DNA from: an uncultured Bacteroidales bacterium
GTDB lineage: Bacteria > Bacteroidota > Bacteroidia > Bacteroidales > SZUA-534
Direction: 5' to 3'
Assembly: GCA_964544385.1 (NCBI GenBank)
Contig: CAZJCR010000003.1
Location: forward strand, 1-53,434
DNA length: 53,434 nt
Within the stretch, counting starts at the first letter, position 1; every line of letters starts with the position of its first letter. Made by a program: the position numbers and the translations under genes. Of this stretch, positions 19,635 to 49,040 are shown in pieces. A model generated the notes under the pieces. It was not told the DNA's origin, made no database searches, and was given only the letters and a program-made list of their open reading frames with translations.

Positions 19635-19776
19635 AACCCAAATTGAGCTAATGGCTCAATCGATTTCGATTTTGTAAGTATTTCACTACACTTCGTTGGT
19701 GAAACACAACAAAATCTACATCGGGGTTAACCTTAGTAAAGCGTTTGTTCGCATAGCTCCAACCGCACAACTCAGG
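19635..19776 (+). repeat. Three-hairpin intergenic repeat, copy A (full length)
   Basis: aacccaaattgagctaatggctcaatcgatttcgattttgtaagtatttcactacacttcgttggtgaaacacaacaaaatctacatcggggttaaccttagtaaagcg...caactcagg. Followed by aaattgggt at 19778-19786, complementary to the left end. Lies 31 nt beyond the histidine kinase stop. Confidence 0.85.
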
Positions 19777-19807
19777 TAAAATTGGGTAAGTAAGCAATAT
19801 AAAAATG

Positions 19808-21994
19808 TTATAGCATTGCATCGGCCGAGTAATTAAACCCCGACGGAAAATGAACCTCAACATAAGTTCCAGCTGGCATGTTATCGTTATAAAGGTCATT
19901 TAGCGTAACAGTAATATGCTCGGTATTAATTGCATTGTAAAAGCTAAACAACTTGTGCATTGTTATCATGCATTTAGTATGGTTCTCGGTATTATTAATA
20001 TTACGGTGCAGCCCCGAGTCTTTTATTGATACAACTGTACAGTTATTTTTGCCTGTATCAATAGTAATTTCGATAGTTCCAGGTTTGCCTTGCGGTAAAA
20101 CGCCTTTTTTAAGAGCGGCTTCAACGTAACAAAAAATGCCCATTTTTGGTATACGTGCGCTACGGTTTATACCGGGAGCAATCATAATATCGTAATTGAA
20201 CATATCTTTAAACCTGAATTTTTCTAAAATAAAATAGTTTTTTACATAGCTAATTTCGTCTTCAATAGTGCGGGTCATTTCGTCGAGCGAGCCAATACTT
20301 TCGCGCATTAGTTTCGAAAAAACCCCCAAATTTGAGTATGCCGTTTTTCGGTCGTCTTTATTTATCGAAAACGATATTGAGTTAAGCGCGTTAAATAAAA
20401 AGTGTGGGTCGAGTTGTTTGCGCATAAGGTCAATTTGTAATTGCATTGTGTTTTTTGCCTGGTTGTAAACTTTTTGTTTTTGTATGTTTACCAGTTTTTG
20501 GCGTGTTAAAAAAATGCCGGCAGCCAACAATGCCGTAGCAAAATAAAAAACATACGACCACCAGTACCAAGTTTGTTTATAGTACCGTATTAAAAAATTA
20601 TAATTATCGGTTTGCACCGATAATATGTTATGTTTGTTGGCATTGTGTTTTACCGCGAACGATACTTTTTGTGAACCTATACCGGGTATTTTAACTTTTA
20701 CAGGTTCTTTTAAGTTTTGACGGTAAATTTTTATAACGTTATCTTTTACCAAAATAATCTCTTCGTGTTTATCGTCGTCAATATCGATAAAAGCAACCTG
20801 GTTAAAGTTATCGTTAAGGTTTTTAGTTTCAATAACAGCAAGGTGCTCATTATACCTATAAAAGTAGCCGTCGTTGCAAAAAAGGCAAATGTTGTCGTAT
20901 TTAGCTCGTTTATTGTCGAAAATAAAATTGTTAAGTTTTAAATGTCGTTGGCGTATTATTTTACCATTGGTGTTGTATATGCGCGCAATACCGGGTTTGT
21001 CGTTATTTAAAAACCATGTTACCGATGCAATAAAGTTGCCTTTTTTTGTTTGTAACGGAAAAGTTGATGTTACCGAAAGTTGTGTATTAAAAGCTTTGCT
21101 GCAAAACAATGGTTTTAACTCATGGTTAAGCACAATGGTTGACGAAATAATGGTATTACTATCAGTCGAAGGCCATGCCTGGTCGGTGTTGTTAAGTGTC
21201 GATAAAAATACTTCGCTTTTACCATCGTTGTCAATATCGAAAACAATTGGCCCGCTTACAAGCTGAATGCCAATGTTTGCCGATTTGTTTACCTTGTTAT
21301 TATGTACATCGTATGCAAAAACATTACGCGGCGTTTGGTAATAACGGCTGTTTACCGAAAAAATAACCTCTTTATACCCATCTCCGTTAAGGTCGGCCAT
21401 GTCGCCTTTATGTATAATAAGGTGCAACGACGAGTTTGGTTCGGTAAAACTACATACGCATACTTTTTTTCGTAAAAAATGGTTGTTTTTAAAAGGTTCA
21501 ATTACGTACAAGTATAAACAATGATTATCTTTTGAAAACACGTAGAGTTCATTAAAGCCATTGTTATTATAATCGCCCTGTATAAAATCAAATTTATTTA
21601 AAACTTCGCCATCGAGTTCCCAAAAATTCTGAAAATCGCCTTGCGACGAGTATTGGTTTACAATTGGTTTACGGTTGTTGCTTAAGTTGTAATAAACAAA
21701 TTCTTCCGAGTTGCCATCGTTGTCGGCATCCATGAATACAATTTTTTGGTTTTCGGCAAGTAATTGGCCATTTTGGTTTATTAACCGGGCAACATATTTG
21801 TTAAGTGTTTGTGGTTTAAGCAAAACACCTGCCAGTAAACCTAAAAAAACAACAATTAGTAATGCTATATTGGGTTTAAAACTAAGTGGTATAATAATTT
21901 TATTCGGTTTTATCACAATAATTATTGTAGGGTTAATTTTTATAACAAATTTAATTATAACTTTTAATGTGGCACTATACAAATATAGTTTCAA
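19808..21994 (-). CDS. Sensor histidine kinase, LytS/YehU type (His_kinase + HATPase), with N-terminal FG-GAP/VCBS-like beta-propeller sensor region
   Basis: 728-aa ORF. Four DxDxDG-like motifs (DADNDGNSEEF, DLNGDGYKEV, DIDNDGKSEV, DIDDDKHEEI), then a TM helix, then LDPHFLFNALNSISF (PF06580-type) and an ATPase domain. The track start is TTG inside a -7 box. A GTG at 21916 is a plausible true start. Confidence 0.75.
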   Translation of the reverse strand: MKLYLYSATLKVIIKFVIKINPTIIIVIKPNKIIIPLSFKPNIALLIVVFLGLLAGVLLKPQTLNKYVARLINQNGQLLAENQKIVFMDADNDGNSEEFVYYNLSNNRKPIVNQYSSQGDFQNFWELDGEVLNKFDFIQGDYNNNGFNELYVFSKDNHCLYLYVIEPFKNNHFLRKKVCVCSFTEPNSSLHLIIHKGDMADLNGDGYKEVIFSVNSRYYQTPRNVFAYDVHNNKVNKSANIGIQLVSGPIVFDIDNDGKSEVFLSTLNNTDQAWPSTDSNTIISSTIVLNHELKPLFCSKAFNTQLSVTSTFPLQTKKGNFIASVTWFLNNDKPGIARIYNTNGKIIRQRHLKLNNFIFDNKRAKYDNICLFCNDGYFYRYNEHLAVIETKNLNDNFNQVAFIDIDDDKHEEIILVKDNVIKIYRQNLKEPVKVKIPGIGSQKVSFAVKHNANKHNILSVQTDNYNFLIRYYKQTWYWWSYVFYFATALLAAGIFLTRQKLVNIQKQKVYNQAKNTMQLQIDLMRKQLDPHFLFNALNSISFSINKDDRKTAYSNLGVFSKLMRESIGSLDEMTRTIEDEISYVKNYFILEKFRFKDMFNYDIMIAPGINRSARIPKMGIFCYVEAALKKGVLPQGKPGTIEITIDTGKNNCTVVSIKDSGLHRNINNTENHTKCMITMHKLFSFYNAINTEHITVTLNDLYNDNMPAGTYVEVHFPSGFNYSADAML
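21980..21987 (-). promoter_or_regulatory. Bacteroidota -7 promoter box (TATATTTG on minus strand)
   Basis: CAAATATA on the plus strand. It lies just inside the 5' end of the track ORF, immediately after the TTG at 21994 that the track uses as start. Confidence 0.4.
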
Positions 21995-22054
21995 TAATGT
22001 TTAATAATATTTAGTATTGGTAACTAAAAATTGGGTTTAACCCGCTTAAAATAT

Positions 22055-22062
22055 TATTTTTG
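22055..22062 (+). promoter_or_regulatory. Bacteroidota -7 promoter box (TATTTTTG)
   Basis: Exact match. Its TTG is the track start at 22060. The true ATG is 24 nt downstream. Confidence 0.5.
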
Positions 22063-22086
22063 ATGATAATAAATACTACTTTATAT

Positions 22087-22971
22087 ATGGAACTACTTAA
22101 AAAATTTGAACTTAATTTTGATATTAATTATGTTAACGGGCAATTAAAAAACATTGAACTGTTGGCAAAAGAAATGTTTACCCCCGAATATCTTAAATTA
22201 GCTTTTAGTTTAATTGATTTAACAACGTTAAATTCAACCGATCAACAATCGAAAGGTATTGCATTTGCAAATAAGGTTAACAACTTTAGCAGTAATTTTA
22301 ACAACATTCAAAATGTTGCCGCTATATGCGTGTATCCTCCATTAGTTAAGGCAACGGCGCAGGCTTTAAAAGTTAGTAATGTTGGTATTGCATCGGTTGC
22401 TGCTTGTTTCCCGTCGTCGCAAAGTTATATCGAGGTTAAAACTCTTGAATGTAAAATGGCTGTTGCCGACGGTGCTACCGATATTGATATTGTTATATCG
22501 CTTGGCCCCTGGTTCGATGGTAATTACCAGCTTGTGTACAACGAGATAGCAGCTATTAAACAGGCTGTTGGTAATGCACACCTAAAAGTTATACTCGAAA
22601 CGGGCGCATTACAAACTGTTGAGAATATTTGGAATGCAAGCATTGTTGCAATGGCTGCCGGTGCCGATTTTATTAAAACATCGACAGGGAAAATGGACCC
22701 CGCGGCTACACCAATGGCTGTTTTTATTATGTGTATGGCAATTAACGAATTTTACAAACAAACTGGTAAAAAAACGGCCATAAAACCAGCTGGTGGTATG
22801 GTTATTAGTCCCGACGCGTTAACATATATTGCAATTGTAAAAAGTATTTTAGGTAACGATTGGTTAAACAACAAAATGTTCAGGTTAGGTGCAAGCCGGC
22901 TTGCCAATAATTTACTAACCGATATTGTTTCACTTGAAACAGGGCAACAAACACAGGTAAACTATTTTTAA
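22087..22971 (+). CDS. deoC: Deoxyribose-phosphate aldolase (long, DERA-like form)
   Basis: MELLKKFELNF...IDLTTLNSTD...ADFIKTSTGK (Schiff-base Lys context). The track ORF starts at TTG 22060. Confidence 0.85.
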   Translation: MELLKKFELNFDINYVNGQLKNIELLAKEMFTPEYLKLAFSLIDLTTLNSTDQQSKGIAFANKVNNFSSNFNNIQNVAAICVYPPLVKATAQALKVSNVGIASVAACFPSSQSYIEVKTLECKMAVADGATDIDIVISLGPWFDGNYQLVYNEIAAIKQAVGNAHLKVILETGALQTVENIWNASIVAMAAGADFIKTSTGKMDPAATPMAVFIMCMAINEFYKQTGKKTAIKPAGGMVISPDALTYIAIVKSILGNDWLNNKMFRLGASRLANNLLTDIVSLETGQQTQVNYF

Positions 22972-23040
22972 ACAAACTCTACATCGGGGTTATACCTAAG
23001 TAAAGTGTTTGTTGGTTTAGCTCAAACCGCTCAACTTAGG
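22971..23040 (+). repeat. Three-hairpin repeat, copy B (3' half only)
   Basis: aacaaactctacatcggggttatacctaagtaaagtgtttgttggtttagctcaaaccgctcaacttagg. Begins at the last base of the deoC stop codon. Confidence 0.8.
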
Positions 23041-23075
23041 TGATAAACTGTTTTGAATACTTGTTTTTATAAACA

Positions 23076-23213
23076 CCTAAAATCTGCAAGTAAAATAATA
23101 CAAACCGCAGAGAATAAAGATAAAGCAAAGTTTGACTCATATAAAACAGTGATGTTTTTATCTGTGAACTCTGTGCTCTCTGTGGTTAGAAAAATATACT
23201 TGCGGATTTTAGG
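23076..23213. repeat. 138-nt imperfect long hairpin with TCTGTG iterons
   Basis: Outer stem cctaaaatctgcaagta (23076-23092) pairs with tacttgcggattttagg (23197-23213), 17 bp with one G-T. Inner stem aaccgcagaga (23103-23113) pairs with tctctgtggtt (23177-23187). Third stem agataaa (23118-23124) pairs with tttatct (23157-23163). The 3' arm holds tctgtgaac tctgtgctc tctgtgg. Confidence 0.7.
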
Positions 23214-23317
23214 AAATATTAAAATAAAACAATTATTTGGGTTTGTATAGTTTTAAAAAATGAATATAATAACCATAATATTATTATAGGTTATTGTTTA
23301 TAACCTTCGTTTTAAAA

Positions 23318-24208
23318 CTACACCCTAACTGTATTGTGAGCAAAATGCTGCATCCATTGGCGAGTACCATTATATCCGCACGAAAAGCCTGCTACATTAG
23401 CCGCGCAAAGTAAAGCGGTGTTAAGATTTTTATGTAAAGCATAATAATAACAAAATGCACCATGATAAATATCGCCAGCACCAAGTGTATCTTTTACTCT
23501 AATTTTGGCAACAGGTAGTTCGTAGTTGTTATTGTTGGTAAAAACTAAAACAGGGTTGTTACCACGCGTAATAATAGTTTTATTTACACCGCAGTAATTT
23601 AAATAATTTGCCAAATCGGTTTTTGATTTACAGTTTGGCGGTAAAAAATCGTTACTGCAAATGGCAATATCAATGTTTTCGATAAAATTTTCGAGCCCTG
23701 GTTTCCAACTTCCTCCATCGAGTATGCATGGCACATTGTGTTTTTTAAGTTCGTTGGCAATATAATTGCTAATTGGCAAATAAAATCCATCGAACAAAGC
23801 CAAGTCGAAACTACTGTAATCGATATTAAGGTTGTATAATAAATTATTGTAGTTATTTTGTGGCATGTACGATAAAATTGTACGGTCTCCATTAGTGTTA
23901 TCGGTAATAATACTGGCAAACACCGGTTCACTGTTTACTGTCGACACCGGGTCAATTAAACTAACATTTAAACTGTTAAGCTGATGTTTAATATAATTGG
24001 ACAAGCTGTGTATGCCAACTGGCGAAACCAATGTAACACTGGCTCCTAAAAATGCCGCAGTAATTGCCGCGTTTGTAGCGGGTCCGCCTATTGCAACCTC
24101 GTTGTTTTGAGCTTTGGTTTTAGTGTTTGGTTTTGGAAAAGCATCGACAAAAAATTGTATATCGATAGTATTTAAACCTACAAATAATAGTTTTATTTTA
24201 CGGTGCAT
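23318..24208 (-). CDS. PfkB-family carbohydrate kinase (ribokinase/deoxyribokinase-like)
   Basis: 296 aa: GGPATNAAITAAFLGA and the C-terminal DTLGAGDIYHGAF signature. Confidence 0.8.
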   Translation of the reverse strand: MHRKIKLLFVGLNTIDIQFFVDAFPKPNTKTKAQNNEVAIGGPATNAAITAAFLGASVTLVSPVGIHSLSNYIKHQLNSLNVSLIDPVSTVNSEPVFASIITDNTNGDRTILSYMPQNNYNNLLYNLNIDYSSFDLALFDGFYLPISNYIANELKKHNVPCILDGGSWKPGLENFIENIDIAICSNDFLPPNCKSKTDLANYLNYCGVNKTIITRGNNPVLVFTNNNNYELPVAKIRVKDTLGAGDIYHGAFCYYYALHKNLNTALLCAANVAGFSCGYNGTRQWMQHFAHNTVRV

Positions 24209-24241
24209 AAATTATTACTTTGGTTGCAAAGTACCTGGTAT

Positions 24242-25828
24242 CTATAATAAAACAAATTGTAAAAAAATAATTAGTAAAACCATAGCAATTGGGTAAATTG
24301 TGGCATACGCAATTTTAGGGGCTTCGCTGGCGGTCATCGATTCAACAGCTGCTAAACCGGGTGTGCTGGTCATACCGCCTGTTAATGCGCCTAAAACATT
24401 TAATATGTTCATTTTAAATATGTTATTGCAAATAAAAACAGTAATTATCATTGGTAAAACAGTAATTACAGCTCCCCAAATAAACAAACTAAAACCATAG
24501 TTACTAAAAGTATCGACAATTGTTGAACCGGCCTCGGTGCCAACCGTAGCTAAAAAAAACAATAAACCAAGTTGCTTAAGCAAATTTGTGGCAGCACCCG
24601 ACATTGACCATACTAATGGCCCGGTACGCCCAATGCGTCCTAAAATTAAAGCGGCAAATAAAACCCCGCCGGTTAAACCTATCGATAAATTAAACGTCGC
24701 CCCAAATGATATGCTAAGTTTTCCAAGTAAAATTCCAAGTAAAATTCCAACCGCTATCGGGAAAAAATCGGTATCCGACAATTTTTTGTCGTTGTTACCA
24801 AAAAGTACAGCAACATGTTTCATGTTTTCGATACTGCATGCAACTACAATTTTGTCGCCCATTTGTAGCTGAAGGCCGGGGTCGGGGGTAAGGTCAATAC
24901 CACTACGCCTTACGCGTGTAACTGTTGCCGAGTAAATACGCGAAAGGTTTATTTGTCTTAATGTTTTTCCAAATACCTCTTTATTTGTAACTAAAAGCCA
25001 TTGTACCTGGTATTTGTTCGATAGTGGCAGCTCCTCGTCAATTGCCGGGCCAATAATTGATTCAACGTTTTGTAAGGCTTTTTTGGGTCCAACCATATGT
25101 AGTTTATCGCCTAAATAAAGTACTGTCGATGGCGATGGTGTAAAAATATTGTTGTTGTGTGCAACCCTCGATATTACCGCACCGGTTATACGCCTTATTT
25201 TTAGTTCGCCAATTGTTTTGCCCGATGCATTTGGGTTTTGGAGTATAAAGGTACGGGGGTATATCTCGGGGTGGTTTTCGAGTATTTGTTTTTCAACATC
25301 ACTTTCGGCGGTTTTAATATCGGTTTTTAAAATTTTGGGCAAAAGTTTTACAAAAACTATTACTCCAATAACACCAAACGGGTATGCAATACCATAACCT
25401 ATCGATGTTAAGGGCGAGTTTGTACTGTCGATAGCAGCAGCAAGCCCTGGTGTACTTGTTAATGCCCCGGTAAACAATCCAACAACCATGTTTTTGTCTA
25501 AACCCGAAAAATATTTTATTAAAACAGCAATTATTGTTGCCGATGATATTAATATTAACGACACTAAAAATAATTGCCGGCCATGCTTTTTAAACGATTC
25601 GAAAAACCCTGGCGCGGCCTGCATACCAACAGTGTACATAAATAGAATAAGCCCGAGGGTTTGAAACTCGTGCGGCAGTTTAAAACCAAGGTATCCTAAA
25701 AATAATGCTACAAACAATACTGCCGAAACGTCGAGCGATATACCTTTTATTTTAATATTACCAATTAAAAAACCAAGAGCTATTATAAAAAATAGCATAA
25801 AATAAGGGGCACCAAAAAAACTTAACAT
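24242..25828 (-). CDS. YidE/YbjL (AAE) family transporter with two central TrkA-C/RCK_C domains
   Basis: 528 aa. Duplicated 5-6 TM halves flank two RCK_C-like segments (GKTIGELKIRRITGAVISRV...; GKTLRQINLSRIYSATVTRVRRSG...). Confidence 0.75.
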   Translation of the reverse strand: MLSFFGAPYFMLFFIIALGFLIGNIKIKGISLDVSAVLFVALFLGYLGFKLPHEFQTLGLILFMYTVGMQAAPGFFESFKKHGRQLFLVSLILISSATIIAVLIKYFSGLDKNMVVGLFTGALTSTPGLAAAIDSTNSPLTSIGYGIAYPFGVIGVIVFVKLLPKILKTDIKTAESDVEKQILENHPEIYPRTFILQNPNASGKTIGELKIRRITGAVISRVAHNNNIFTPSPSTVLYLGDKLHMVGPKKALQNVESIIGPAIDEELPLSNKYQVQWLLVTNKEVFGKTLRQINLSRIYSATVTRVRRSGIDLTPDPGLQLQMGDKIVVACSIENMKHVAVLFGNNDKKLSDTDFFPIAVGILLGILLGKLSISFGATFNLSIGLTGGVLFAALILGRIGRTGPLVWSMSGAATNLLKQLGLLFFLATVGTEAGSTIVDTFSNYGFSLFIWGAVITVLPMIITVFICNNIFKMNILNVLGALTGGMTSTPGLAAVESMTASEAPKIAYATIYPIAMVLLIIFLQFVLL

Positions 25829-25830
25829 GT

Positions 25831-26862
25831 TTATTTAATTATTACAAGTTTCGATGTAAAAAATTTGTTGTCCGATTTTAGCATAACAATGTAAACGCCG
25901 TTTTCAACCTGGCTTAAGTCAACAACATTTGATACAACTTTTGCAGTATAAACAAGTTTACCGGTATTATTATATATCGATATGTTGTTATAATTACCGT
26001 CGATATTTAAAGTTGTATTAGCCGGGTTTGGATAAATTTGGGGGCTGTTTTTTTCAATTTGTTTAACATTTGTTGAACCCCAAATGCGTTCAACAAATTC
26101 GGGGTGGTCAATAAAGGGGTTACGGTTTTTTTGATAACTATATATTACATTGTTACGGTTTCGTTCCCATTCATTTACGGGGTCTTGATTATGCCATAAA
26201 AGTAAATCCGACAGTAAAGCGTGTACAGGCTCGTTGGTGTAATTATCAACAGGCAAATAGTCAATAATAGTAAGGTTTGGTTCGTTGTTTTTCCCTTTAT
26301 AACGGGTAGCCATGTAAAATATCATTCGTGCAATATCACCTTTAACTTCGTCGCGGGGTTTCCAAACATAACGTACATTGTCGGTATACGAGCCTATTGG
26401 TTTGTTATTGTAATAAACCGGTACATTGCACTCGGCAAACCAGCGGTTACTACGAGCCGTGTTAATATCGTTAATTGATGGCCTTAGGTGGTGAACGTCG
26501 GTGCCTGCACCAATTTCGGTGCCAAAATCGCCACGGCTTTTTGCCCAAACGTGCTCGCGGGTCCAGCCATTGCCTCCGTTGTACTCTTGCGCGGCATTAA
26601 CGCTTAAACCCGAGTATATACAAATAACATTATTGGGGTTAATGGTGTCGCGGTCGGTTTCTTTTAAAATGTCCCAAACATCGGTACTTGTCGATGTGTA
26701 CGGAAACTGTTTATGGTCTTTAATAATATTGTAAAGTTCCCATTGTAAATCAATTCCATTAAGCCCTTGTGTCGATGAGTAATAACCATCGGGAATTTGC
26801 GGACTGGCAATAAATATTCCAAAAAAAAGTAATAACGATAAACAAGTTATAAATTTGCCCAT
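25831..26862 (-). CDS. Secreted endonuclease I family nuclease with T9SS C-terminal sorting domain
   Basis: 343 aa with signal peptide. EHVWAKSRG...DVHHLRPSINDINTARSNRWF is endonuclease I-like. C-terminal IYPNPANTTLNI...GVYIVMLKSDNKFFTSKLVIIK is a Por secretion tail. Confidence 0.8.
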   Translation of the reverse strand: MGKFITCLSLLLFFGIFIASPQIPDGYYSSTQGLNGIDLQWELYNIIKDHKQFPYTSTSTDVWDILKETDRDTINPNNVICIYSGLSVNAAQEYNGGNGWTREHVWAKSRGDFGTEIGAGTDVHHLRPSINDINTARSNRWFAECNVPVYYNNKPIGSYTDNVRYVWKPRDEVKGDIARMIFYMATRYKGKNNEPNLTIIDYLPVDNYTNEPVHALLSDLLLWHNQDPVNEWERNRNNVIYSYQKNRNPFIDHPEFVERIWGSTNVKQIEKNSPQIYPNPANTTLNIDGNYNNISIYNNTGKLVYTAKVVSNVVDLSQVENGVYIVMLKSDNKFFTSKLVIIK

Positions 26863-26932
26863 AAGTAGTAGTTTTAATTTAGGGTGGCAAAGTTAATGGT
26901 TTTTGCTACTTTTAGTTTTAATTTTTGATTAA

Positions 26933-27388
26933 ATGCGAGTAGTTATACAGCGAGTAAAAAATGCATCGGTAAGTGTTAATAACATAATGATTTCGGCAAT
27001 TAATAACGGTTTACTGGTTTTAGTCGGATTTGTGAATAATGATACTGATGATGACATAAATTGGTTAACCGATAAAATAACCGGGCTACGAATTTTCAAC
27101 GACCAAAACGGTGTTATGAACCTGTCGGTTATCGATGTTGACGGCCAAATTTTGGTTGTATCGCAATTTACACTACATGCACAAACAAAAAAAGGCAACA
27201 GGCCATCGTATATTAGGGCATCAAAACCCGAAAAAGCTATACCCATGTACAATAAATTTATAACACAGCTAAACAGCAAGTTAAATAATAGTGTACAAAC
27301 CGGCCAATTTGGTGCCATGATGCAGGTAGATTTAATTAACGACGGCCCTGTTACAATTATTATCGACACTAAACAACGCGATTTTTGA
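26933..27388 (+). CDS. dtd: D-aminoacyl-tRNA deacylase
   Basis: 151 aa: MRVVIQRVKNASVSV...LLVLVGF...ILVVSQFTLHAQTKKGNRPS. Confidence 0.9.
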   Translation: MRVVIQRVKNASVSVNNIMISAINNGLLVLVGFVNNDTDDDINWLTDKITGLRIFNDQNGVMNLSVIDVDGQILVVSQFTLHAQTKKGNRPSYIRASKPEKAIPMYNKFITQLNSKLNNSVQTGQFGAMMQVDLINDGPVTIIIDTKQRDF

Positions 27389-27735
27389 TGCAAAACGATA
27401 ATACAAATATATCACTGGCCAATGCCCAGTTATTAGTTGATAGCTGGATTAAAAAATACGGAGTACGATATTTTTCGGAACTTACAAACATGGTAATTTT
27501 AACCGAAGAGGTTGGTGAACTTGCGCGCGTAGTTTCGCGTACATATGGCGAGCAGTCGTTTAAACCAGGCGAAAACACAAACAACCTTGCCGACGAAATT
27601 GCCGATGTGTTGTGGGTGCTTATTTGTTTGGCAAACCAAACAGGTGTTGATTTAACCAGCGCGTTTTTAAAAAATATTGAAAAAAAAACTGACCGCGATA
27701 GCAAAAGACATTTACAAAATAAAAAACTAAAGTAG
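27388..27735 (+). CDS. MazG-like nucleotide pyrophosphohydrolase
   Basis: ATG 27388 shares its A with the dtd stop codon TGA (TGATG). EEVGELARV...LADEIADVLWVLICLA is a MazG-type EExxE/ExxD context. Confidence 0.8.
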   Translation: MQNDNTNISLANAQLLVDSWIKKYGVRYFSELTNMVILTEEVGELARVVSRTYGEQSFKPGENTNNLADEIADVLWVLICLANQTGVDLTSAFLKNIEKKTDRDSKRHLQNKKLK

Positions 27736-27790
27736 TTTGTATTTGTTATGATAAAAATACTTAACTTAACAAATACCTTTACGACAAAAA

Positions 27791-27824
27791 TTTGTTGATA
27801 CCCACAAAAAAAGTTATATTTTTG
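27791..27824 (+). promoter_or_regulatory. Bacteroidota promoter: -33 TTTG (27791-27794) and -7 TATTTTTG (27817-27824)
   Basis: Both elements present with a 22-nt spacer, 79 nt upstream of ATG 27904. Confidence 0.5.
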
Positions 27825-27903
27825 TTTAAAAGTATTATTTGCGGTTAAGTTTAATCGGATAAAAAACAAATATTTATATTACAATAATAACCAATAAGTT
27901 AAT

Positions 27904-28287
27904 ATGTTCAGCAATTACGATTTTACAGGTAAAAAAATACTTATAGCCGAGGACGAAAAAACAAATTATTTGTTTTTAGAAGCATTGCTTAAGCGAACAA
28001 ACGCTTCGTTGGTTTGGGCCGAAACAGGCCGGGCAGCTTTAGATGCGGTTATTAACGACCCTGGCATTAACATTGTTTTGATGGACATAAAAATGCCCGA
28101 GATGAACGGGTACGAGGCTACTCACGAAATCAAAAAAATTAGGCCAACATTACCTATTATTGCTCAAACTGCATATGCTTTAGCCGGCGAAAAAGAGAAA
28201 ATTTTAAGTGCCGGTTGCGACGATTACCTGTCGAAACCTATAATGGGCAAAGTATTACTCGAAAAAATTAACAAGTTTTTCACCTAA
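27904..28287 (+). CDS. Stand-alone response regulator receiver (CheY-like)
   Basis: 127 aa: KILIAEDEKTNYLFLEALL...VLMDIKMPEMNGYEAT...AQTAYALAGEKEKILSAGCDDYLSKP. Confidence 0.85.
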   Translation: MFSNYDFTGKKILIAEDEKTNYLFLEALLKRTNASLVWAETGRAALDAVINDPGINIVLMDIKMPEMNGYEATHEIKKIRPTLPIIAQTAYALAGEKEKILSAGCDDYLSKPIMGKVLLEKINKFFT

Positions 28288-28425
28288 GCTGAGCGGTTGG
28301 AGTAATCCGAACAAGAGCTTTACTTAGGTATAACCCCTATGTGGAGTTTGTTGCGTTTCACTAACTAAGTTTAGTTAAATACCTACAAAATCTAAATCGA
28401 TTGAGCGGTTAGCTCAATTTGGGTT
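28283..28425 (-). repeat. Three-hairpin intergenic repeat, copy C (full length, inverted)
   Basis: Its reverse complement reads aacccaaattgagctaaccgctcaatcgatttagattttgtaggtatttaactaaacttagttagtgaaacgcaacaaactccacataggggttatacctaagtaaagctc...gctcagcttagg. The terminal CCTAAG contains the response-regulator stop codon (28285-28287). Confidence 0.85.
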
Positions 28426-28458
28426 TTTATAAATAATAATATCAACAAAGGTTTACAG

Positions 28459-28486
28459 GCCCGGGTTTATATCCGGGCTTTTTTTT
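28459..28486 (+). terminator. Rho-independent terminator (overlaps the 3' end of the convergent membrane-protein gene)
   Basis: GCCCGGgtttatatCCGGGCtttttttt: 6-bp GC stem, 8-nt loop and 8 T. Confidence 0.75.
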
Positions 28487-29816
28487 GGGCTATTTGTTGC
28501 CGGTGGTTGCTTAATATAACTAAAAGTACTATGGCAAAAAAAGTAAGTACCGGCGACCGGTAACGTACCAAAGCACCAAAATTTGCTGTTGTAAGCCCTA
28601 CAAAAAACGCGAATGTTATTGAAAAAACAAATGCCGATAATAAAAACGGGTCGGTGTAAACCCGTTTAACAAAACCAAAAATACGGCAACATAACAATAC
28701 CCATATTGTTAGTAATAATATTATGCCGCTCTCAATAGCCGACAAAAGCATAAGCGGGTTTCGTACTTCCCAAAAAAACGGCCTGTAAATGCCCGATACC
28801 GATGCAATTGGAAACTTGCTCAAAATGCCTTGTAAGGTTGGTTCAAAACTACCTATATCAAAACTGTTGCCTCCGTAATACTCTTTGCTAAGGTCGCTTT
28901 GTATTATTTGTGCTGTTTCAAGCATCGAGTCGATACTTTGGTAACGTGCGCCAACCTGCGACCCGGTTTTAAATAATATAAAGGTGCCAGTTAAATAAAT
29001 TGTAAGCATAATTACCGGGAAAGCTATTGTTCGCAAAAAATTGCTTTTTATGCGGCTTAAATAATAAAAACCTAACCAAATAAGCGCGCTCCCGGTTGCA
29101 ACATAAAAAGTGTATGGCCTTATTGATATGGCAATGTATGACCAGACAATTAATATTATAATATTTGATAATATTTTTTTGCGTTCGATAAAAATGTTGT
29201 TGGCACAAATAAAAATGTAAAAAGTAGCAATAAGGCACCAGCCGTCTTTTAATATTCCCGAGCTCCAAAAAACAATACTTGGCATAAACAGAACTGCAAT
29301 TGCCAAAAGTTTTTTTTGCTTTGGGTAAAAGCCTGCTACTAACCTGTAAAAGTGCCATATACCTAAATACCAAAAAACATTAACAACAATTGTGTTACCA
29401 ATATAACTACCAAAACTAATAAGGTAAAAAAGGTAATTAAACCTGCTAACAGCAAACGACAAGGGGTCGCGGAAGTAAACAGGGTATCCGGTATTTATGT
29501 CGAACATGCTGGCAACCTCGGGTGTGTGTATACCAGCCATTAGTTTAATAAATGTTGGAAAATGCTTAACCGCCATGCGGTTTATTGATTGCGAGCCCAA
29601 ATAATAATATACGGTATCGCCACCGCCATAATAATATAAGTAAACGTATGTAAAAAACAGGCCGCCAAATATTTTTAAAAATAAACCGGTTGTAAAGTAT
29701 TTATACTCGGGGTTAAGGTCAATGTTTTTGTTTACAGTTTTACGTGCCCAAAAGTAAACTATAATTATGTACAGTGGTGCTATTATTATGTCGGTTGACG
29801 ATAAAATATCTAACAT
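28467..29816 (-). CDS. Hypothetical polytopic membrane protein (about 12 TM, Wzy/GT-C-like appearance, family not recognised)
   Basis: 449-aa ORF, very hydrophobic and rich in aromatic residues. No motif I can name. Confidence 0.5.
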   Translation of the reverse strand: MLDILSSTDIIIAPLYIIIVYFWARKTVNKNIDLNPEYKYFTTGLFLKIFGGLFFTYVYLYYYGGGDTVYYYLGSQSINRMAVKHFPTFIKLMAGIHTPEVASMFDINTGYPVYFRDPLSFAVSRFNYLFYLISFGSYIGNTIVVNVFWYLGIWHFYRLVAGFYPKQKKLLAIAVLFMPSIVFWSSGILKDGWCLIATFYIFICANNIFIERKKILSNIIILIVWSYIAISIRPYTFYVATGSALIWLGFYYLSRIKSNFLRTIAFPVIMLTIYLTGTFILFKTGSQVGARYQSIDSMLETAQIIQSDLSKEYYGGNSFDIGSFEPTLQGILSKFPIASVSGIYRPFFWEVRNPLMLLSAIESGIILLLTIWVLLCCRIFGFVKRVYTDPFLLSAFVFSITFAFFVGLTTANFGALVRYRSPVLTFFAIVLLVILSNHRQQIAQKKARI

Positions 29817-29824
29817 AAAGTGTA

Positions 29825-30625: not shown

Positions 30626-30898
30626 TTTTTTTTGAATTTTTATTAATTGGTGTTTAATAATTATTCAATATTTTGAATAATTGATAGTAATAAATTAACG
30701 TAAAAATAGCATAAACAATTAAATTATAATTTTAATAATAAACATGTTAGGCAATATTAACGGTTTTTATTAGCCTTATAAATATCGATAAAGTTTTGAT
30801 TAACAAAAATAATATGGTTATAAAAAGCATAAAATAATTGATTAATATACTTTACTAATCAATTTAATTTTTTAATTTGCCTCTCAAATCAGGCATTA

Positions 30899-33658: not shown

Positions 33659-33660
33659 GG

Positions 33661-34383: not shown

Positions 34384-34384
34384 A

Positions 34385-36673: not shown

Positions 36674-36753
36674 ATAAAATTATTTATGTCCTAATTTTGG
36701 TTATTTTGAACGTGTTTATATCAATAAACTTGAATTATTGTAAATTATTTTAT

Positions 36754-37335: not shown

Positions 37336-37373
37336 TATAATTTAGTTTGTGTAAAAACCATATTAAATGGTTT

Positions 37374-38687: not shown

Positions 38688-38723
38688 TTTTCAGTATTTA
38701 TAATGTGTGTTTGTTTTAATTAT

Positions 38724-39869: not shown

Positions 39870-39878
39870 TATAATTTG

Positions 39879-40751: not shown

Positions 40752-40769
40752 TAATAAAAAATTTACGTG

Positions 40770-40777
40770 CAAATATA
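40770..40777 (-). promoter_or_regulatory. Bacteroidota -7 promoter box (TATATTTG on minus strand)
   Basis: CAAATATA on the plus strand, 18 nt upstream of ATG 40751. Confidence 0.5.
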
Positions 40778-40819
40778 TAAAAACTTCGCGGGTTAACTAT
40801 GTGGTTATTTAGGTTAAGG

Positions 40820-43630: not shown

Positions 43631-43663
43631 TAATTAGTTTTTAAAAACCTTTAAATTTATTGT

Positions 43664-43805
43664 AACCCAAATTGAGCGAAACGCTCAATCGATTTAGATT
43701 TTGTAAGTATTTCACTACACTTCGTTAGTGAAACACAACAAACTCTACATCGGGGTTAACCTAAGTAAAGCGTTTATTTGCTGCGCTTTAACCGCTTAAC
43801 TTAGG
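43664..43805 (+). repeat. Three-hairpin intergenic repeat, copy D (full length, closest to consensus)
   Basis: aacccaaattgagcgaaacgctcaatcgatttagattttgtaagtatttcactacacttcgttagtgaaacacaacaaactctacatcggggttaacctaagtaaagcgtttatttgctgcgctttaaccgcttaacttagg. Confidence 0.9.
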
Positions 43806-43885
43806 AGTAAGCCTTTTTGCGCCATCAAAAAATGCTAATATATTAGTTCAATTTTTTAAATAGTGTAAGCTTTTAAAAACACATG

Positions 43886-43968
43886 CTAATTGAGCTGCTA
43901 CAAGCTCTAAATAAAGACTATACCTAAGTAAATGTTTTGTTAGTTTTGCATAAGCTGCAAAATGCGGG
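43886..43968 (+). repeat. Degenerate, internally deleted copy D' of the repeat (hairpin 1 + hairpin 3 regions)
   Basis: ctaattgagctgctacaagctc...tatacctaagtaaatgttttgttagttttgcataagctgc. Recognisable only by the attgagc and tacctaagtaaa segments. Confidence 0.35.
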
Positions 43969-44085
43969 TAAAATTTATAAATTTGTTTTTAAAACTAAAT
44001 AAACATGTTTCCTTATAATTTTTTACATTTATGCTAAATATTTAAAAACATTTTTATAAAAACCATAAAATTTTGAACAATTAGT

Positions 44086-44093
44086 TATATTTG
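44086..44093 (+). promoter_or_regulatory. Bacteroidota -7 promoter box (TATATTTG)
   Basis: Exact match. Its TTG is the track start at 44091. ATG 44115 is 21 nt downstream. Confidence 0.5.
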
Positions 44094-44114
44094 AAGCCCA
44101 AAATAAAATTTGTA

Positions 44115-45152
44115 ATGTCAAAGTTAATACTACCCGAAAACTATAAAAGTTTTCTGAATTTAAAACAAACCGAACAAGCAATAAAGCTTGTTAAAGATAA
44201 TTTTGAGAACCACCTGTCGGGCGAATTACGGTTGCGGCGCGTAACAGCACCCCTGTTCGTATTGCAGGGTACCGGTATAAACGACGACCTTAATGGTTTC
44301 GAGAATAAAGTAACATTTGGTATACTTGATATGGAAGGCAAAAAGGCCGAGGTTGTAAACTCGCTTGCCAAATGGAAACGCCTTGCCCTTGCCGACTATC
44401 GGATACCCGAAGGTTACGGTATTTATACCGACATGAACGCCATACGCCCCGACGAAGAATTAGATAATATACACTCGTTGTATGTTGACCAATGGGACTG
44501 GGAACTAAATTTGCCTGCAAATAAGCGAAACCTCGAATTTTTGAAAACAACTGTAAACAAAATTTATGAGGTTTTAAAACGTGTTGAGTTTGTTGTGTAT
44601 CAAACGTACCCTCAAATTGAGCCTATACTGCCAGATAATATTACTTTTATTCACTCCGAAGAGTTGCTTAAAATGTACCCAAATTTATCGGCTAAAGAAC
44701 GCGAAACCGAGATTACCAAAAAACATAAAGCTGTTTTTATTATTGGAATAGGAGCCGGGCTCGAAAACGGTGAGCGCCACGATGGCCGGGCTCCCGATTA
44801 CGACGACTGGAGTACACCTACACAAAATGGTTATAAAGGCCTTAATGGCGATATTTTATTATGGCACCCTGTTTTAAATATTGTTTTCGAAATTAGTTCG
44901 ATGGGAATAAGGGTTGATCAAAAAGCCTTGTTAAACCAATTAAACATAGCCGGTGCCGAGAACCGTAAAGAACTATATTTTCACAAACGATTGCTTAATA
45001 ACGAGTTGCCACAGTCGATTGGTGGCGGTTTAGGGCAGTCGCGTATATGTATGTTCTTTTTGCGTAAAGCACATATTGGCGAAATACAATCGAGTATTTG
45101 GCCCGACGATATGCGAACCGATTGTGCAAAAAATGGTATTACTTTAATATAA
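44115..45152 (+). CDS. asnA: Aspartate--ammonia ligase (asparagine synthetase A)
   Basis: MSKLILPENYKSFLNLKQTEQAIKLVKDNFE...LRRVTAPLFV...SIGGGLGQSRICMFFL. 345 aa from ATG 44115. Confidence 0.9.
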   Translation: MSKLILPENYKSFLNLKQTEQAIKLVKDNFENHLSGELRLRRVTAPLFVLQGTGINDDLNGFENKVTFGILDMEGKKAEVVNSLAKWKRLALADYRIPEGYGIYTDMNAIRPDEELDNIHSLYVDQWDWELNLPANKRNLEFLKTTVNKIYEVLKRVEFVVYQTYPQIEPILPDNITFIHSEELLKMYPNLSAKERETEITKKHKAVFIIGIGAGLENGERHDGRAPDYDDWSTPTQNGYKGLNGDILLWHPVLNIVFEISSMGIRVDQKALLNQLNIAGAENRKELYFHKRLLNNELPQSIGGGLGQSRICMFFLRKAHIGEIQSSIWPDDMRTDCAKNGITLI

Positions 45153-45175
45153 GCTGATATTTAGATTTTAAAGAA

Positions 45176-45218
45176 AATAAAAAGGGGTGTTATTTTTAAT
45201 AACAGCCCTTTTTATTTT
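45176..45218. terminator. Bidirectional rho-independent terminator between asnA and the S41 peptidase gene
   Basis: aaaaaGGGGTGTTATttttaATAACAGCCCtttttatttt: ~14-bp stem with one mismatch, T-runs on both strands. Confidence 0.7.
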
Positions 45219-45251
45219 GAATAATTTAAGCTCATAGGCTTATTAAAATAA

Positions 45252-45393
45252 AACTCGAATTGAGCGATTACCTCACAGGATAAAACCTTTATAAGCCTTT
45301 TACGGCACTACGTTTTTGAAAGACCACAAACTCTACTTCGGGGTTAACCTAAGTAAAGCGGTTGTTTACTTGGTTCCAACAGCTAAATTTAGG
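45252..45393 (+). repeat. Three-hairpin intergenic repeat, copy F (full length, divergent 5' half)
   Basis: aactcgaattgagcgattacctcacagg...accacaaactctacttcggggttaacctaagtaaagcggttgtttacttggttccaacagctaaatttagg. Confidence 0.7.
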
Positions 45394-45448
45394 TTTTAAA
45401 AACTTAAAATTAAGGAAAGTGTTTTTTGTTATGTTAAAGTCGCTAAAC

Positions 45449-46528
45449 TTAGTTTAACTCTAAAATTGCCCTGTCAATAATTTCGTCTTTAGTTAAATCG
45501 GACCAGTTAAAAGCTGCCTGTATGTCGGCAGGTACGCCATGTTCGGCATAAACATTACCGTTTAAGTCGAGTAGCTGGCTAATGCTAAAGCGGTATGTCC
45601 AACCATTTGGCATTTGCCCGCCATTTGGCAGCCCACCGCCACCACCAGTAGTATCGCCCATAAGGGTAATATTTTGTAAAGCTTTTGTGGCAAGTGCAAA
45701 AAAAGTTGTAGCACTATACGAACCTCTGTCGATAAGAACAATTACAGGTTTTAAATATTTTACACCGCTATACGGAGTGATAAAAAAATCTTCGCGTTCC
45801 GAAAAGCTGTTATGGCTGATACCGTTGCGAGTAATACTATAAGCTACAAGTGTTTTTGTATCAGTAAACCGTCCAAGTATTTTAGGGACGTTAAAAAGGC
45901 TGCCGCCGCCATTTGCCCTAACATCAAAAATAAGGCCTTTTGTATCTTTGTAGCGGTTTATAATATAGTCCATTTCCTGGTTACTAAAATCATTGGCAAA
46001 GCTCTTGTAACGAATATACCCTATTTCGTTGTTATGTAAAAAACCATGAGTAAAGGCTCCTTTTGACATTGCATTAGGTATATAAAACTCGTTAACAGTA
46101 CGTTCGTGATAGTTTTCGGGTGTTTTAACCATAATATTGTAACGCGAAATACTAAACGGGCTAATAAGGTTAGTATGGTCGTCGCGTAATTCATTTAACA
46201 TAGCGGCCAATACATTAAACAGCTCCTCGTTGGTCGATTTTTCGGAAAGCATTGGGCGATACTTGTTTTTAATTTGTTGCCAATCAATATTTTTGGTTTC
46301 AAAATAGCTGTATTTATTATTAACCTCGTCCCATAAATAGTCGAAATTAGCCAATGGTTCATCGGTAGCTAAATCGGGTCCAAAAAGAACCTCCTCGCAC
46401 GATAATATTGTTGCTGAAAAAATTATGAATAATAAAACAAATTTAGTTTTACAATAAAATTTGCTTAATAAATTGAAAGTAAGATGCACAATAATTTTAA
46501 GTTTGTTATTGTTTTTTAAAAAAGCCAT
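45449..46528 (-). CDS. S41 family peptidase (lipoprotein)
   Basis: 359 aa. Lipobox FIIFSATILSC, and LIDRGSYSATTFFALATK...GDTTGGGGG typical of the S41 tail-specific-protease family. Exact start uncertain. Confidence 0.75.
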   Translation of the reverse strand: MAFLKNNNKLKIIVHLTFNLLSKFYCKTKFVLLFIIFSATILSCEEVLFGPDLATDEPLANFDYLWDEVNNKYSYFETKNIDWQQIKNKYRPMLSEKSTNEELFNVLAAMLNELRDDHTNLISPFSISRYNIMVKTPENYHERTVNEFYIPNAMSKGAFTHGFLHNNEIGYIRYKSFANDFSNQEMDYIINRYKDTKGLIFDVRANGGGSLFNVPKILGRFTDTKTLVAYSITRNGISHNSFSEREDFFITPYSGVKYLKPVIVLIDRGSYSATTFFALATKALQNITLMGDTTGGGGGLPNGGQMPNGWTYRFSISQLLDLNGNVYAEHGVPADIQAAFNWSDLTKDEIIDRAILELN

Positions 46529-46579
46529 ATTAATAATGTTTTAGTATCTGTTTATAAATAGCAATTGGTAAATGGTTTA

Positions 46580-46722
46580 AACCCAAATTGAGCGATTCGC
46601 TCAATCGATTTATATTTTGTATGTATTTCGCTGCACTTGGTTAGTGAAACACAACAAACTCTACATCGGGGTTATACTTATGTAAGGTGTTTGTTTGCTT
46701 AGCTACAACCACTCAACTTAGG
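46580..46722 (+). repeat. Three-hairpin intergenic repeat, copy G (full length)
   Basis: aacccaaattgagcgattcgctcaatcgatttatattttgtatgtatttcgctgcacttggttagtgaaacacaacaaactctacatcggggttatacttatgtaaggtg...cactcaacttagg. Confidence 0.85.
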
Positions 46723-46798
46723 TTTTATTTAACCGTTAAACATAAGTTAAATTATATTTTATTGTTACAATATTTTTTTGGTTACAAACCATCGATAA

Positions 46799-47713
46799 TT
46801 AAAATTTATTTGCGTTAAAATAGTAAGTAAAAATTATTTGATGGCTTGCCAATTGGAATTTTTCGTGTTTGCCGGGCGCATTTGCAGCATCCCACACGTA
46901 TGACAGGCTTTTAGCGTTACCATTTTTAAGGTATTTAATATACTCGACTCCGGCATTTATGCGCCAGCCGTTTAGCGACCATTTGTAGTTTGATATAAGC
47001 CACGATAAAGAATTGGTTTCAGTTCCAACTATTTGACTGATATATGAGTACGCGTAACCCGGCCTGTAATTAAAATTAAGTAAACCTACATTAGCAAATA
47101 TTTTAAGGTCGCGTTTTACAGGTTTTAATGTATGTTTAAAAAGCCAAAAATTTAATTCGCAAGGCTCGTTTCGCGATATATCGGTTGTAAATTGACCCGA
47201 TAACATGACATTTGTTAAATTTTCGATGCCAACTGAATTGTTTAGCAAAGCAGCATTGTTTCTAAAATTTTGTGTAATGTGTACAACACCACCGAGTTTT
47301 ATGTTGAAATTTTCGGTTGATATTGAGTTAATTTTCCATAATTGTAAATATCGGATATTTAGTTGCATTAAACTTGAGCCAGTAGTTGGCTGTAGATTAT
47401 CGCTATTTTGAATGTTTGCCAACAGTGAACTATAACCAAAACCTATCTCGAGTTTATGTTCGTGTATGTTTGATACTTTTAGCCATGCCGTTTGTAACTG
47501 TATACCTGCCCCACGGTAAAACAGGGGCGATGTGGCAAAATCGCGATATAATGGGCTGTTTGCTCCTACTGTAAATAATCTGTAGTAATTTGTAACATTA
47601 TTATTATCAGGCATATTAGCTGCCTTATTGTTTTGACTGTAGCCGTTTTGTATAATGACAGCAGTTAAAACCAGGGTGTAAAAAAGTTTGGTGTAACTTT
47701 TAATTTTAATCAT
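46799..47713 (-). CDS. Hypothetical outer-membrane beta-barrel protein
   Basis: 304 aa with a signal peptide, amphipathic strand periodicity and a C-terminal ...FTYYFNANKF ending in Phe. Confidence 0.5.
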   Translation of the reverse strand: MIKIKSYTKLFYTLVLTAVIIQNGYSQNNKAANMPDNNNVTNYYRLFTVGANSPLYRDFATSPLFYRGAGIQLQTAWLKVSNIHEHKLEIGFGYSSLLANIQNSDNLQPTTGSSLMQLNIRYLQLWKINSISTENFNIKLGGVVHITQNFRNNAALLNNSVGIENLTNVMLSGQFTTDISRNEPCELNFWLFKHTLKPVKRDLKIFANVGLLNFNYRPGYAYSYISQIVGTETNSLSWLISNYKWSLNGWRINAGVEYIKYLKNGNAKSLSYVWDAANAPGKHEKFQLASHQIIFTYYFNANKF

Positions 47714-47840
47714 AAAATTTTAAATATTTATTTACTTAATATTTTTACATATCACTAATTCGCGCTAAAATATTGAATATATAATTTGAACAGGTGTTTT
47801 TATTCTAATATCGCAACAGTGGTTGTTAATATTTGTAGTA

Positions 47841-48632
47841 TTATTCAAATGTACCCACTAACTTAAATGAAGTGCCATATCCACCAATTATGGTAAATGT
47901 GTTTTTCGATATGTCATCAATCATAAAACCCATTGGAGTTCCAATAAAATCACTGCTTATTAAGCAATAAATCTGATTGTTTTTATCTTTGGCCATCACG
48001 CTAAATAAATAGGCATTTATTAGGTATCGGGGATGTTGAACAAGATTTTTGTTTATTATAATTTTCTCGTTAACATTAAATACAATAGGGTTATCAACTC
48101 GTATAGTGTTATTGCTGATATTTTTTTCGACCGATGATGTATATAATACCGGACATTTTGGATATATGCCAACAGGCTCCATTGTGTTATCGGTAAATTT
48201 TTGTATTTGAAAATATATATCAACGTTCGAATTAGTTTGTGGCCAACCTTCGGTTGTGTTTGTAGTATCCCAATATACCGATTCTATTTCGATACGTTTT
48301 AAAACCCTATCAACAACAATAATCTCTTTTGAAGTTTCGGTCTGGTTTCCGTTATTGTTTTTGGCAATAAGTTTTAATGTATAAGTTCCTGATTTTGGAT
48401 ACGACAAAACAAATTCGTGTTCCTTTATTGTTCGGCCATCGCCTAAATCCCATAATACTGAGTCGGTATTTGTTGAATTACTGACAACTGAAAAATCATC
48501 AAAACTCGCGACTTTAAAAGTGTTATTATCATTTCCGTTAATTGTAAACGACGAAATGGGCTCTGTTTTGTCCTTGTTGCAACTGTACATTGCACTCATC
48601 AAAATCATCAAAAAAAATAATTTGGTTTTCAT
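47841..48632 (-). CDS. Hypothetical lipoprotein with PKD-like domain
   Basis: The track start is TTG 48689. I prefer ATG 48632 (MKTKLFFLMILMSAMYSCNKD). PKD-like segment WDLGDGRTIKEHEFVLSYPKSGTYTLKLIAKNNNGN. Confidence 0.6.
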   Translation of the reverse strand: MKTKLFFLMILMSAMYSCNKDKTEPISSFTINGNDNNTFKVASFDDFSVVSNSTNTDSVLWDLGDGRTIKEHEFVLSYPKSGTYTLKLIAKNNNGNQTETSKEIIVVDRVLKRIEIESVYWDTTNTTEGWPQTNSNVDIYFQIQKFTDNTMEPVGIYPKCPVLYTSSVEKNISNNTIRVDNPIVFNVNEKIIINKNLVQHPRYLINAYLFSVMAKDKNNQIYCLISSDFIGTPMGFMIDDISKNTFTIIGGYGTSFKLVGTFE

Positions 48633-48824
48633 AATAAATAATTTATAGATTAAGGAATGATAGCCTGCCCCGATACCATGGGTGAACAACTAGGTAGGAA
48701 ATTTTATTGCATGTGTGTTTGTGTTTTTCTAAGCATAGGTGTTTCATCTGTTTTTTTTAGTTGGTTTAATGCAGCTATGATGTTGTTGTATTAATTTAGG
48801 TTGCAAGTAAAAATAATATTGTAA

Positions 48825-48859
48825 AAAAGGTTTGATGCTTTTTTTGCATCAAACCTTTT
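48825..48859. terminator. Bidirectional rho-independent terminator
   Basis: aaaaGGTTTGATGCtttttttGCATCAAACCtttt: perfect 14-bp stem (including A-T extension), A/T runs on both sides. It lies just beyond repeat copy H relative to the LRR gene. Confidence 0.8.
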
Positions 48860-48862
48860 AAT

Positions 48863-49004
48863 ACCCAAATTTTGCGATTAGCTCAATCGATTTATATTTT
48901 GTAAGTATTACACTATACTTCGCATGTGAAACACAACAAACTCTACATCGGGGTTATACCTAAGTTGAGCGTTTGTTCGTTTAGCTCCAAACGCTCAACT
49001 TAGG
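48863..49004 (+). repeat. Three-hairpin intergenic repeat, copy H (full length; hairpin 3 a perfect 16-bp stem)
   Basis: acccaaattttgcgattagctcaatcgatttatattttgtaagtattacactatacttcgcatgtgaaacacaacaaactctacatcggggttataCCTAAGTTGAGCGTTTgttcgtttagctccAAACGCTCAACTTAGG. Confidence 0.85.
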
Positions 49005-49013
49005 TAATAATGT

Positions 49014-49040
49014 AACCAACATTGAGCAATTAGCTCAATT
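49014..49040 (+). repeat. Solo left-end/hairpin-1 fragment H' of the repeat
   Basis: aaccaacattgagcaattagctcaatt, compared with the consensus left end aacccaaattgagcNNNNgctcaat. It lies 4 nt from the LRR gene stop codon. Confidence 0.55.

Follow-up and report, generated by a model that had tools for sequence, protein, structure and literature searches.

A dispersed 142-bp intergenic repeat of an uncultured Bacteroidales bacterium has the features of miniature inverted-repeat transposable elements

The DNA analysed here (the window, meaning the whole 53,434-bp stretch, contig CAZJCR010000003.1 of an uncultured Bacteroidales bacterium) carries a family of 142-bp repeats that is probably, with a likelihood of roughly 0.7, a MITE (miniature inverted-repeat transposable element), that is, a non-autonomous transposon mobilised in trans, its DDE transposase being encoded elsewhere. 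We arrive at this reading because the repeat combines inverted ends, short duplications of variable sequence and a symmetric AT-rich target with being non-coding, intergenic and dispersed. It shares with MITEs, which span about 50-800 bp, a short, non-coding sequence, terminal inverted repeats, a target-site duplication and dispersed copies in unrelated DNA, and from these properties we infer a transposase, its IS1380-like or IS982-like family and actual mobility. The initial annotation of the window had recognized a dispersed, non-coding, length-conserved and hairpin-rich family, all of which holds, and had left open whether this was mobile or functional; the inverted ends and the target duplications, both of which point to a MITE, were absent from it.

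The family comprises six full copies (spanning 142-144 bp, the element proper, ACC...GGT, being 141-143 bp), a single 3' half copy and three remnants in various states of preservation that have decayed. These 10 pieces occupy 7 intergenic gaps, all within 19.6-49.1 kb of the contig:

19635-19777, + strand: full copy 1 (element proper 19636-19777), 156.7 bits with the covariance model, flanks AAA/AAA (a 3-bp duplication), located in the gap where an MltF-like gene and a histidine kinase gene converge
22971-23041, + strand: 3' half copy covering model positions 74-144 (core and 3' hairpin), nhmmer E 4e-19, its start flush with the stop codon of a DeoC-like open reading frame (ORF)
28282-28425, - strand: full copy 2, the sole inverted full copy, flanks AAA/GAA
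43664-43806, + strand: full copy 3, 164.2 bits, duplication GTA/GTA, in the divergent polA/asnA intergenic region
43845-43969, + strand: degenerate copy 39 nt 3' of copy 3, nhmmer E 1e-5, 22.7 bits
45252-45394, + strand: full copy 4, flanks AAA/TTT with no match left, in the convergent gap between asnA and an S41 peptidase gene
45405-45454, + strand: decayed solo 3' hairpin module 10 nt past copy 4, 23 bits, overlapping the stop codon of the S41 peptidase ORF
46580-46723, + strand: full copy 5, 159.2 bits, flanks TAA/TTT, flanked by two minus-strand genes
48862-49005, + strand: full copy 6, 147.6 bits, duplication AAT/AAT, directly past the T-tract of a hairpin terminator at 48823-48859, in the 3' region of a 1436-aa leucine-rich-repeat (LRR) gene with a type IX secretion domain
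49015 to about 49058, + strand: 5' end fragment (ACCAACATTGAGCAATTAGCTCAAT...), preceded by T-GTA and overlapping the stop codon of the LRR gene (49044-49046)

The six full copies lie within 1-2 nt of where they had first been placed, both by nhmmer profile (E 1e-37 to 1e-45) and by covariance model (108-164 bits). Among the partial copies, the one at 22971 was borne out as a half copy, and the other two are real but had been given other bounds: that reported at 43886-43968 is longer and degenerate (nhmmer recovers about 43856-43963 of it), and that at 49014-49040 is the 5' end fragment listed above. A repeat search of the whole window gave five direct 142-nt copies and one inverted, to which a 76-nt sub-family adds 22971 and 43899. 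In a filter-free covariance-model scan of both strands of the contig nothing rose above noise in 1-19 kb or 29-43 kb, the two regions from which copies had been said to be absent. The 21-nt core occurs 7 times in the window, against 0.19 occurrences expected by chance, and a remnant lies 9-39 nt downstream of each of three full copies (43664, 45252 and 48862). Nine of the 10 pieces (8 of 9 before the solo-hairpin remnant was added) are on the + strand, which is the strand of positive GC skew contig-wide; this bias is marginal (about p 0.04), and replication-strand effects are not separable from local clustering.

Pairwise identity among the window copies is 68-87%, copy 4 being the most diverged (68-77% identity to the others). 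When the copies are aligned with 20 nt of flank on either side, similarity begins and ends sharply at the element boundaries, and since the flanks are unrelated between copies the family is not the product of a segmental duplication. In most copies all six frames are interrupted by stop codons, and a comparison of the six-frame translation with a 5.8-billion-sequence metagenome protein database gave no protein resembling any frame (X placeholders may have cut the sensitivity of this search).

The first base of the consensus originally derived for the repeat is variable (A in six copies, T in three) and is part of the flank, not of the element, whose bounds in searchable form are ACCYAARTTGAGCG ... 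CGCTCAAYTTRGGT. Statistics on flanks and structure are based on nine full copies, six from the window and three from external contigs described below. Each copy is bounded by imperfect terminal inverted repeats of 14-17 bp (ACCYAARTTGAGCGRTT): the 5' end (ACCCAAATTGAGCGATT) and the reverse complement of the 3' end (ACCTAAGTTGAGCGGTT) match at 14 of 17 positions. Compared flush within single copies, the ends match at a mean of 11.6 of 17 positions, against 4.6 in shuffles, at least 12 matches being reached in 0.02% of these. The end sequence is present a third time inside the element (ACCTAAGTAAAGCGTTT), where it makes up the 5' strand of the 3' hairpin.

The 3-bp flanks of ACC...GGT are identical in five of the nine full copies (AAA, GTA, AAT, ATT and TAT); two copies have a single mismatch, and the other two, the most diverged copy among them, have more. 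As a control, left and right flanks were taken from different copies: at that offset at most two of nine pairs were identical in any of 5000 trials, and when the best of 64 boundary offsets was counted, at least five identical pairs were obtained in 1.2% of trials. The base preceding the left triplet is T in eight of nine copies and that following the right triplet is A in all nine, giving the layout T-NNN-[ACC...GGT]-NNN-A, and the insertion site is therefore T-NNN-A. The same context is found at the 5' end fragment (T-GTA-ACC) and at the half copy (GGT-GAT-A). A 3-bp duplication around an ACC...GGT element and a 5-bp TNNNA duplication around a CC...GG element are indistinguishable from these data; the TNNNA 5-mers are exact in four of nine copies.

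The pattern of ends and flanks suggests how a MITE of this kind would spread. A DDE-type transposase from a full-length insertion sequence (IS) elsewhere in the genome would bind both ends of the element, which would be inserted by a staggered cut at AT-rich T-NNN-A sites, and repair of the cut would create the duplication of 3 bp (ACC...GGT) or, equivalently, of the 5 bp TNNNA (CC...GG). Copies would persist only at harmless positions, mostly between gene 3' ends, and their slow decay could leave truncated remnants next to newer insertions.

The same ends and flanks bear on the idea that the repeat moves as single-stranded DNA, either as a REP/REPIN sequence via a RAYT or as a palindrome-associated element of the IS200/IS605 type using subterminal hairpins for recognition. 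Such an element would account for the hairpins near both ends of the repeat, for its conserved structure and for the location of 8 of 9 pieces (the solo-hairpin remnant not yet counted) on the G-rich + strand. However, elements of these types have neither target duplications nor terminal inverted repeats and insert beside a fixed 4-5 nt motif, whereas the repeat family has inverted ends and duplications with variable bases. The contig contains no gene for a Y1 (HUH) transposase or TnpB, and the orientation bias, at about p 0.04, is confounded by the clustering of copies. We regard movement as single-stranded DNA as very unlikely.

Copies of the repeat are not limited to the window. A scan of 185,579 species-representative genomes with the core motif found one true copy, in a Bacteroidales metagenome-assembled genome (MAG; locus L003), where it is flanked by a MaoC-like gene and a gene for a LacI-type regulator; two core matches in Chryseobacterium are chance matches in coding DNA. 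Of 20 loci obtained by the same scan in the JGI metagenome collection, true copies are present at two (L015 and L017, the latter directly downstream of a XerD-like gene), the remaining loci being chance matches to the core alone. Viral contigs gave one chance match only, and blastn searches of plasmid and phage collections gave none. The three external contigs (34-37% G+C) share the element alone with the window, in unrelated gene contexts, so that the family is not without copies elsewhere, as a local duplication artefact would be. Window and external copies are 71-87% identical, much like the window copies among themselves, and with no near-identical copies the family is therefore old and star-like, without a recent burst. 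It seems restricted to a poorly sampled lineage and appears undescribed among the collections searched. The contig of L003 (35% G+C) has in addition a weak covariance-model match of 22.8 bits at 7238-7322, where the local G+C content is 53%; this segment is not a tRNA and is probably unrelated to the repeat.

The structure of the repeat is the main argument for a different reading, in which the copies are a structured non-coding RNA family (small RNA paralogues or cis-acting modules of 3' untranslated regions (UTRs)), selection acts on the fold, and the inverted ends and flanking repeats arose as by-products or reflect an old way of spreading. The + strand has a very stable fold (minimum free energy -48.9 kcal/mol, z -7.8). 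Its consensus consists of a closing helix (AACCC/GGGTT), hairpin 1 (ATTGAGC/GCTCAAT), a long interrupted stem (CGAT/ATCG, TAGA/TCTA, TTTGT/ACAAA and GT/AC, with TTTCACTA/TAGTGAAA at the top) and a separate 3' hairpin (ACCTAAGT...ACTTAGGT). The three hairpins of the initial annotation exist, but its description of the core (ACAAACTCTACATCGGGGTTA) as unpaired finds no support: in the predicted fold the core is the 3' strand of the long irregular stem, with AACCC, CGAT and TTTGT on the 5' side of the element as its partners. Of the pair cells in the nine full copies, 90.4% hold standard pairs, against 32-42% when the partners are slid by 1-3 columns. Changes on both sides are found in 5 pairs, against 1.6 in shuffles (5 being reached by 1 of 500 shuffles), and all five compensatory pairs belong to the long stem or the 3' hairpin. 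Stems are 92% identical to the consensus, hairpin loops 78% and other unpaired positions 82%, and length is kept at 142-144 nt. G-U cells on the + strand outnumber A-C cells (17 against 9), and external copies are as similar to the window copies as those are among themselves.

Several observations speak against such an RNA family. In line with the initial annotation, which could not match the repeat to a named motif, there is no Rfam match to it: the whole window gave none at the gathering threshold, and at E<5 the only matches within 19-49.5 kb are to a terminator hairpin at 28440-28487. The flanks differ, so that the copies have no common upstream promoter; the consensus contains no TAnnTTTG motif on either strand (near-misses with one extra base only), and a scan for sigma-70-type promoters stayed at background level. 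No U-tail follows the 3' hairpin, and orientation relative to genes is inconsistent (sense 3' UTR, antisense and one divergent promoter region). Folding of the opposite strand is just as strong (z -7.3), the surplus of G-U cells lacks significance as an indicator of the functional strand, and the first two helices show no covariation. Finally, the target duplications demand a transposition step regardless. A structured RNA family in this sense is unlikely.

It is doubtful that the three-helix fold came under purifying selection after insertion, with transcribed copies serving as RNA modules, in 3' UTRs or antisense to genes, that work as a terminator, a stabiliser or a processing site. If true, the repeat would be more than selfish DNA, namely a mobile structured-RNA module seen so far in a single Bacteroidales lineage that has been poorly sampled. 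The fold is a real feature of the sequence and under mild constraint, the level at which selection acts being beyond the reach of nine related sequences, and it may possibly have a secondary structural role.

The MITE reading itself has to be weighed against a number of points. The internal core is conserved at 96.5%, more than the ends (90-93%), and the stems are, as seen above, better conserved than the loops; both count against it because a purely selfish DDE-type MITE predicts neither. There is no transposase among the Pfam matches of the 53-kb contig, and no full-length IS with the ends of the element was found, the large DNA scans having used the core motif. The lack of near-identical copies (68-87%) means that there is no sign of recent activity. 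The boundary and the length of the duplication were chosen after seeing the data, with nine copies only in support. The nearest AsnA sequences (78-79% identical) come from Bacteroidales and Salinivirgaceae MAGs and metagenomes, and the asnA neighbourhoods of these relatives are without a copy, but synteny is not kept and the sites are not comparable.

Well-known bacterial MITEs include the Correia elements of Neisseria, RUP of Streptococcus pneumoniae and the MITEs of Porphyromonas gingivalis. Compared at the level of general descriptions, not base by base, the repeat resembles them in its size (100-160 bp), its non-coding nature, its terminal inverted repeats and short duplications, its numerous intergenic copies, which have diverged and often lie at the 3' ends of genes, its strong fold-back and its lack of a transposase of its own. 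Unlike in those elements, each end pairs mainly with internal sequence and not with the other end, the 3' hairpin holds the third, internal end copy (ACCTAAGTAAAGCGTTT), and the duplication is NNN within T-NNN-A instead of TA; nor is there sequence similarity to anything searched. MITEs are abundant in Bacteroidota, a survey reporting 81,380 unique ones in 46,051 genomes (bioRxiv 10.1101/2024.01.18.576219).

Two IS families come into question as the source of the transposase, depending on how the boundary is read, and the signature would fit an IS1380-like or an IS982-like element, with membership of neither established. Members of the IS1380 family, among them IS942/IS1186 of Bacteroides, have CC ends, inverted repeats of 13-16 bp and a 4-5 bp duplication (a general description that draws on two published examples). 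Read as CC...GG, the repeat likewise has CC ends, inverted repeats of 13-14 bp and a 5-bp AT-rich duplication. ISEcp1, of this family, has the left inverted repeat (IRL) CCTAGATTCTACGT and AT-rich 5-bp duplications (TATGA, TAATA, TAAGA, ACTCA; PMC2887853, PMC6061673), and the duplication of IS1247 is also 5 bp (PMC3281130). The ISEcp1 IRL (CCTAGATTCTACGT) has 8 of 13 positions in common with each end of the repeat (in the frame CCYA..TT...CG), and three of its four published duplications fit TNNNA. On the other hand, no IS1380-type transposase was found in the searches and the 5-bp reading is exact in only four of nine copies; the resemblance of the 13-nt ends is weak evidence.

Read as ACC...GGT, the repeat instead recalls the IS982 family, to which IS1187 of Bacteroides fragilis and IS195 of P. 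gingivalis belong among the members considered for comparison. This family is widespread in the FCB group and has AC ends, an inverted-repeat consensus of AC(N)6T(N)5TT and duplications of mostly 6-9 bp (4-8 bp in FCB-group members; PMC7335449). The repeat has AC ends like this family and, at position 9, the T of the consensus; its TT lies one base off, 3 bp would be an unusual length for the duplication, and no IS982 transposase was found in the searches.

The contig (35.7% G+C, 88% coding) carries the housekeeping genes rplM/rpsI, rpsB/tsf, pyrH-like, frr, polA, recO, dxr, rseP-like and asnA, and several of its proteins have type IX secretion C-terminal domains. Pfam searches of the contig detected no integrase, Y1/HUH protein or TnpB, and a tRNA/tmRNA scan detected neither kind of gene. 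Of the five convergent gaps long enough for a copy, four are occupied; the remaining gaps with pieces are one divergent (polA/asnA) and two tail-to-head on the minus strand.

Four same-orientation copies in 43.6-49 kb, which follow one another at 1.3-2.3 kb and are separated by one or two genes, have some likeness to an array of integron-like attC sites separating gene cassettes, all the more so as the repeat is an imperfect palindrome of attC-like length and its GCTCAAC fits RYYYAAC. However, the genes between these copies are housekeeping genes on both strands (asnA and the S41 peptidase gene, with polA adjoining), the other copies are scattered singly, and the motifs resembling RYYYAAC and GTTRRRY are in the wrong arms. 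The target duplications moreover do not agree with site-specific recombination. With such gene content and motif arrangement, and no intI in the contig, this reading is effectively refuted.

Several copies are probably transcribed inside 3' UTRs, as they sit between a stop codon and a terminator. This very likely applies to the copies at 28282 and 48862, judging by their placement between a stop codon and a strong hairpin terminator. A strong intrinsic terminator (28457-28486, + strand) is located beyond the former, and the hairpin terminator next to the latter (48823-48859; GGTTTGATGC-T7-GCATCAAACC, flanked by A6 and T4) looks bidirectional. That copies in 3' UTRs affect termination or mRNA stability is speculation.

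Three pieces touch stop codons, namely the half copy (DeoC-like ORF), the 5' end fragment (LRR gene) and the inverted copy (response regulator). In the last case the terminal ACCTAAG of the copy provides the last sense codon and the TAA stop (28285-28287) of the response-regulator ORF (27904-28287), the end of whose reading frame appears to have been reset by the insertion (28282-28288). Without the insertion this frame would continue through the terminator. As copies supply or abut the stop codons of three genes, caution is warranted in annotating genes next to them.

The repeat is most likely a common kind of bacterial selfish DNA and not a new kind of RNA gene. If it is a MITE, it adds one more family to a phylum already holding tens of thousands; its insertions would explain the unusually long convergent intergenic regions of the contig, and it could serve as a lineage marker for this uncultured Bacteroidales group. 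A change of any general view is unlikely. What retains interest is the three helices of the interior with their constraint, the very strong conservation of the core and the way insertion recurred beside older copies; the first two could bear on how hosts tolerate or exploit insertions in 3' UTRs.

The contig has some other features of note. A 984-nt convergent gap at 1560-2543, unusually long for a contig that is 88% coding, has no ORF longer than 71 aa, no Rfam match and no repeat copy. Long ORFs overlap on opposite strands at 26929-27393 (-) and 26933-27388 (+), with another at 27369-27869 (-); Pfam matches none of them. The LRR gene (49044-53354, - strand) encodes a BspA-type protein of 1436 aa, with leucine-rich repeats and a C-terminal domain for type IX secretion, and contains several long internal DNA repeat families, among them units of 300 nt with up to 92% identity and, at 52777-53208, an array with a 66-nt period.

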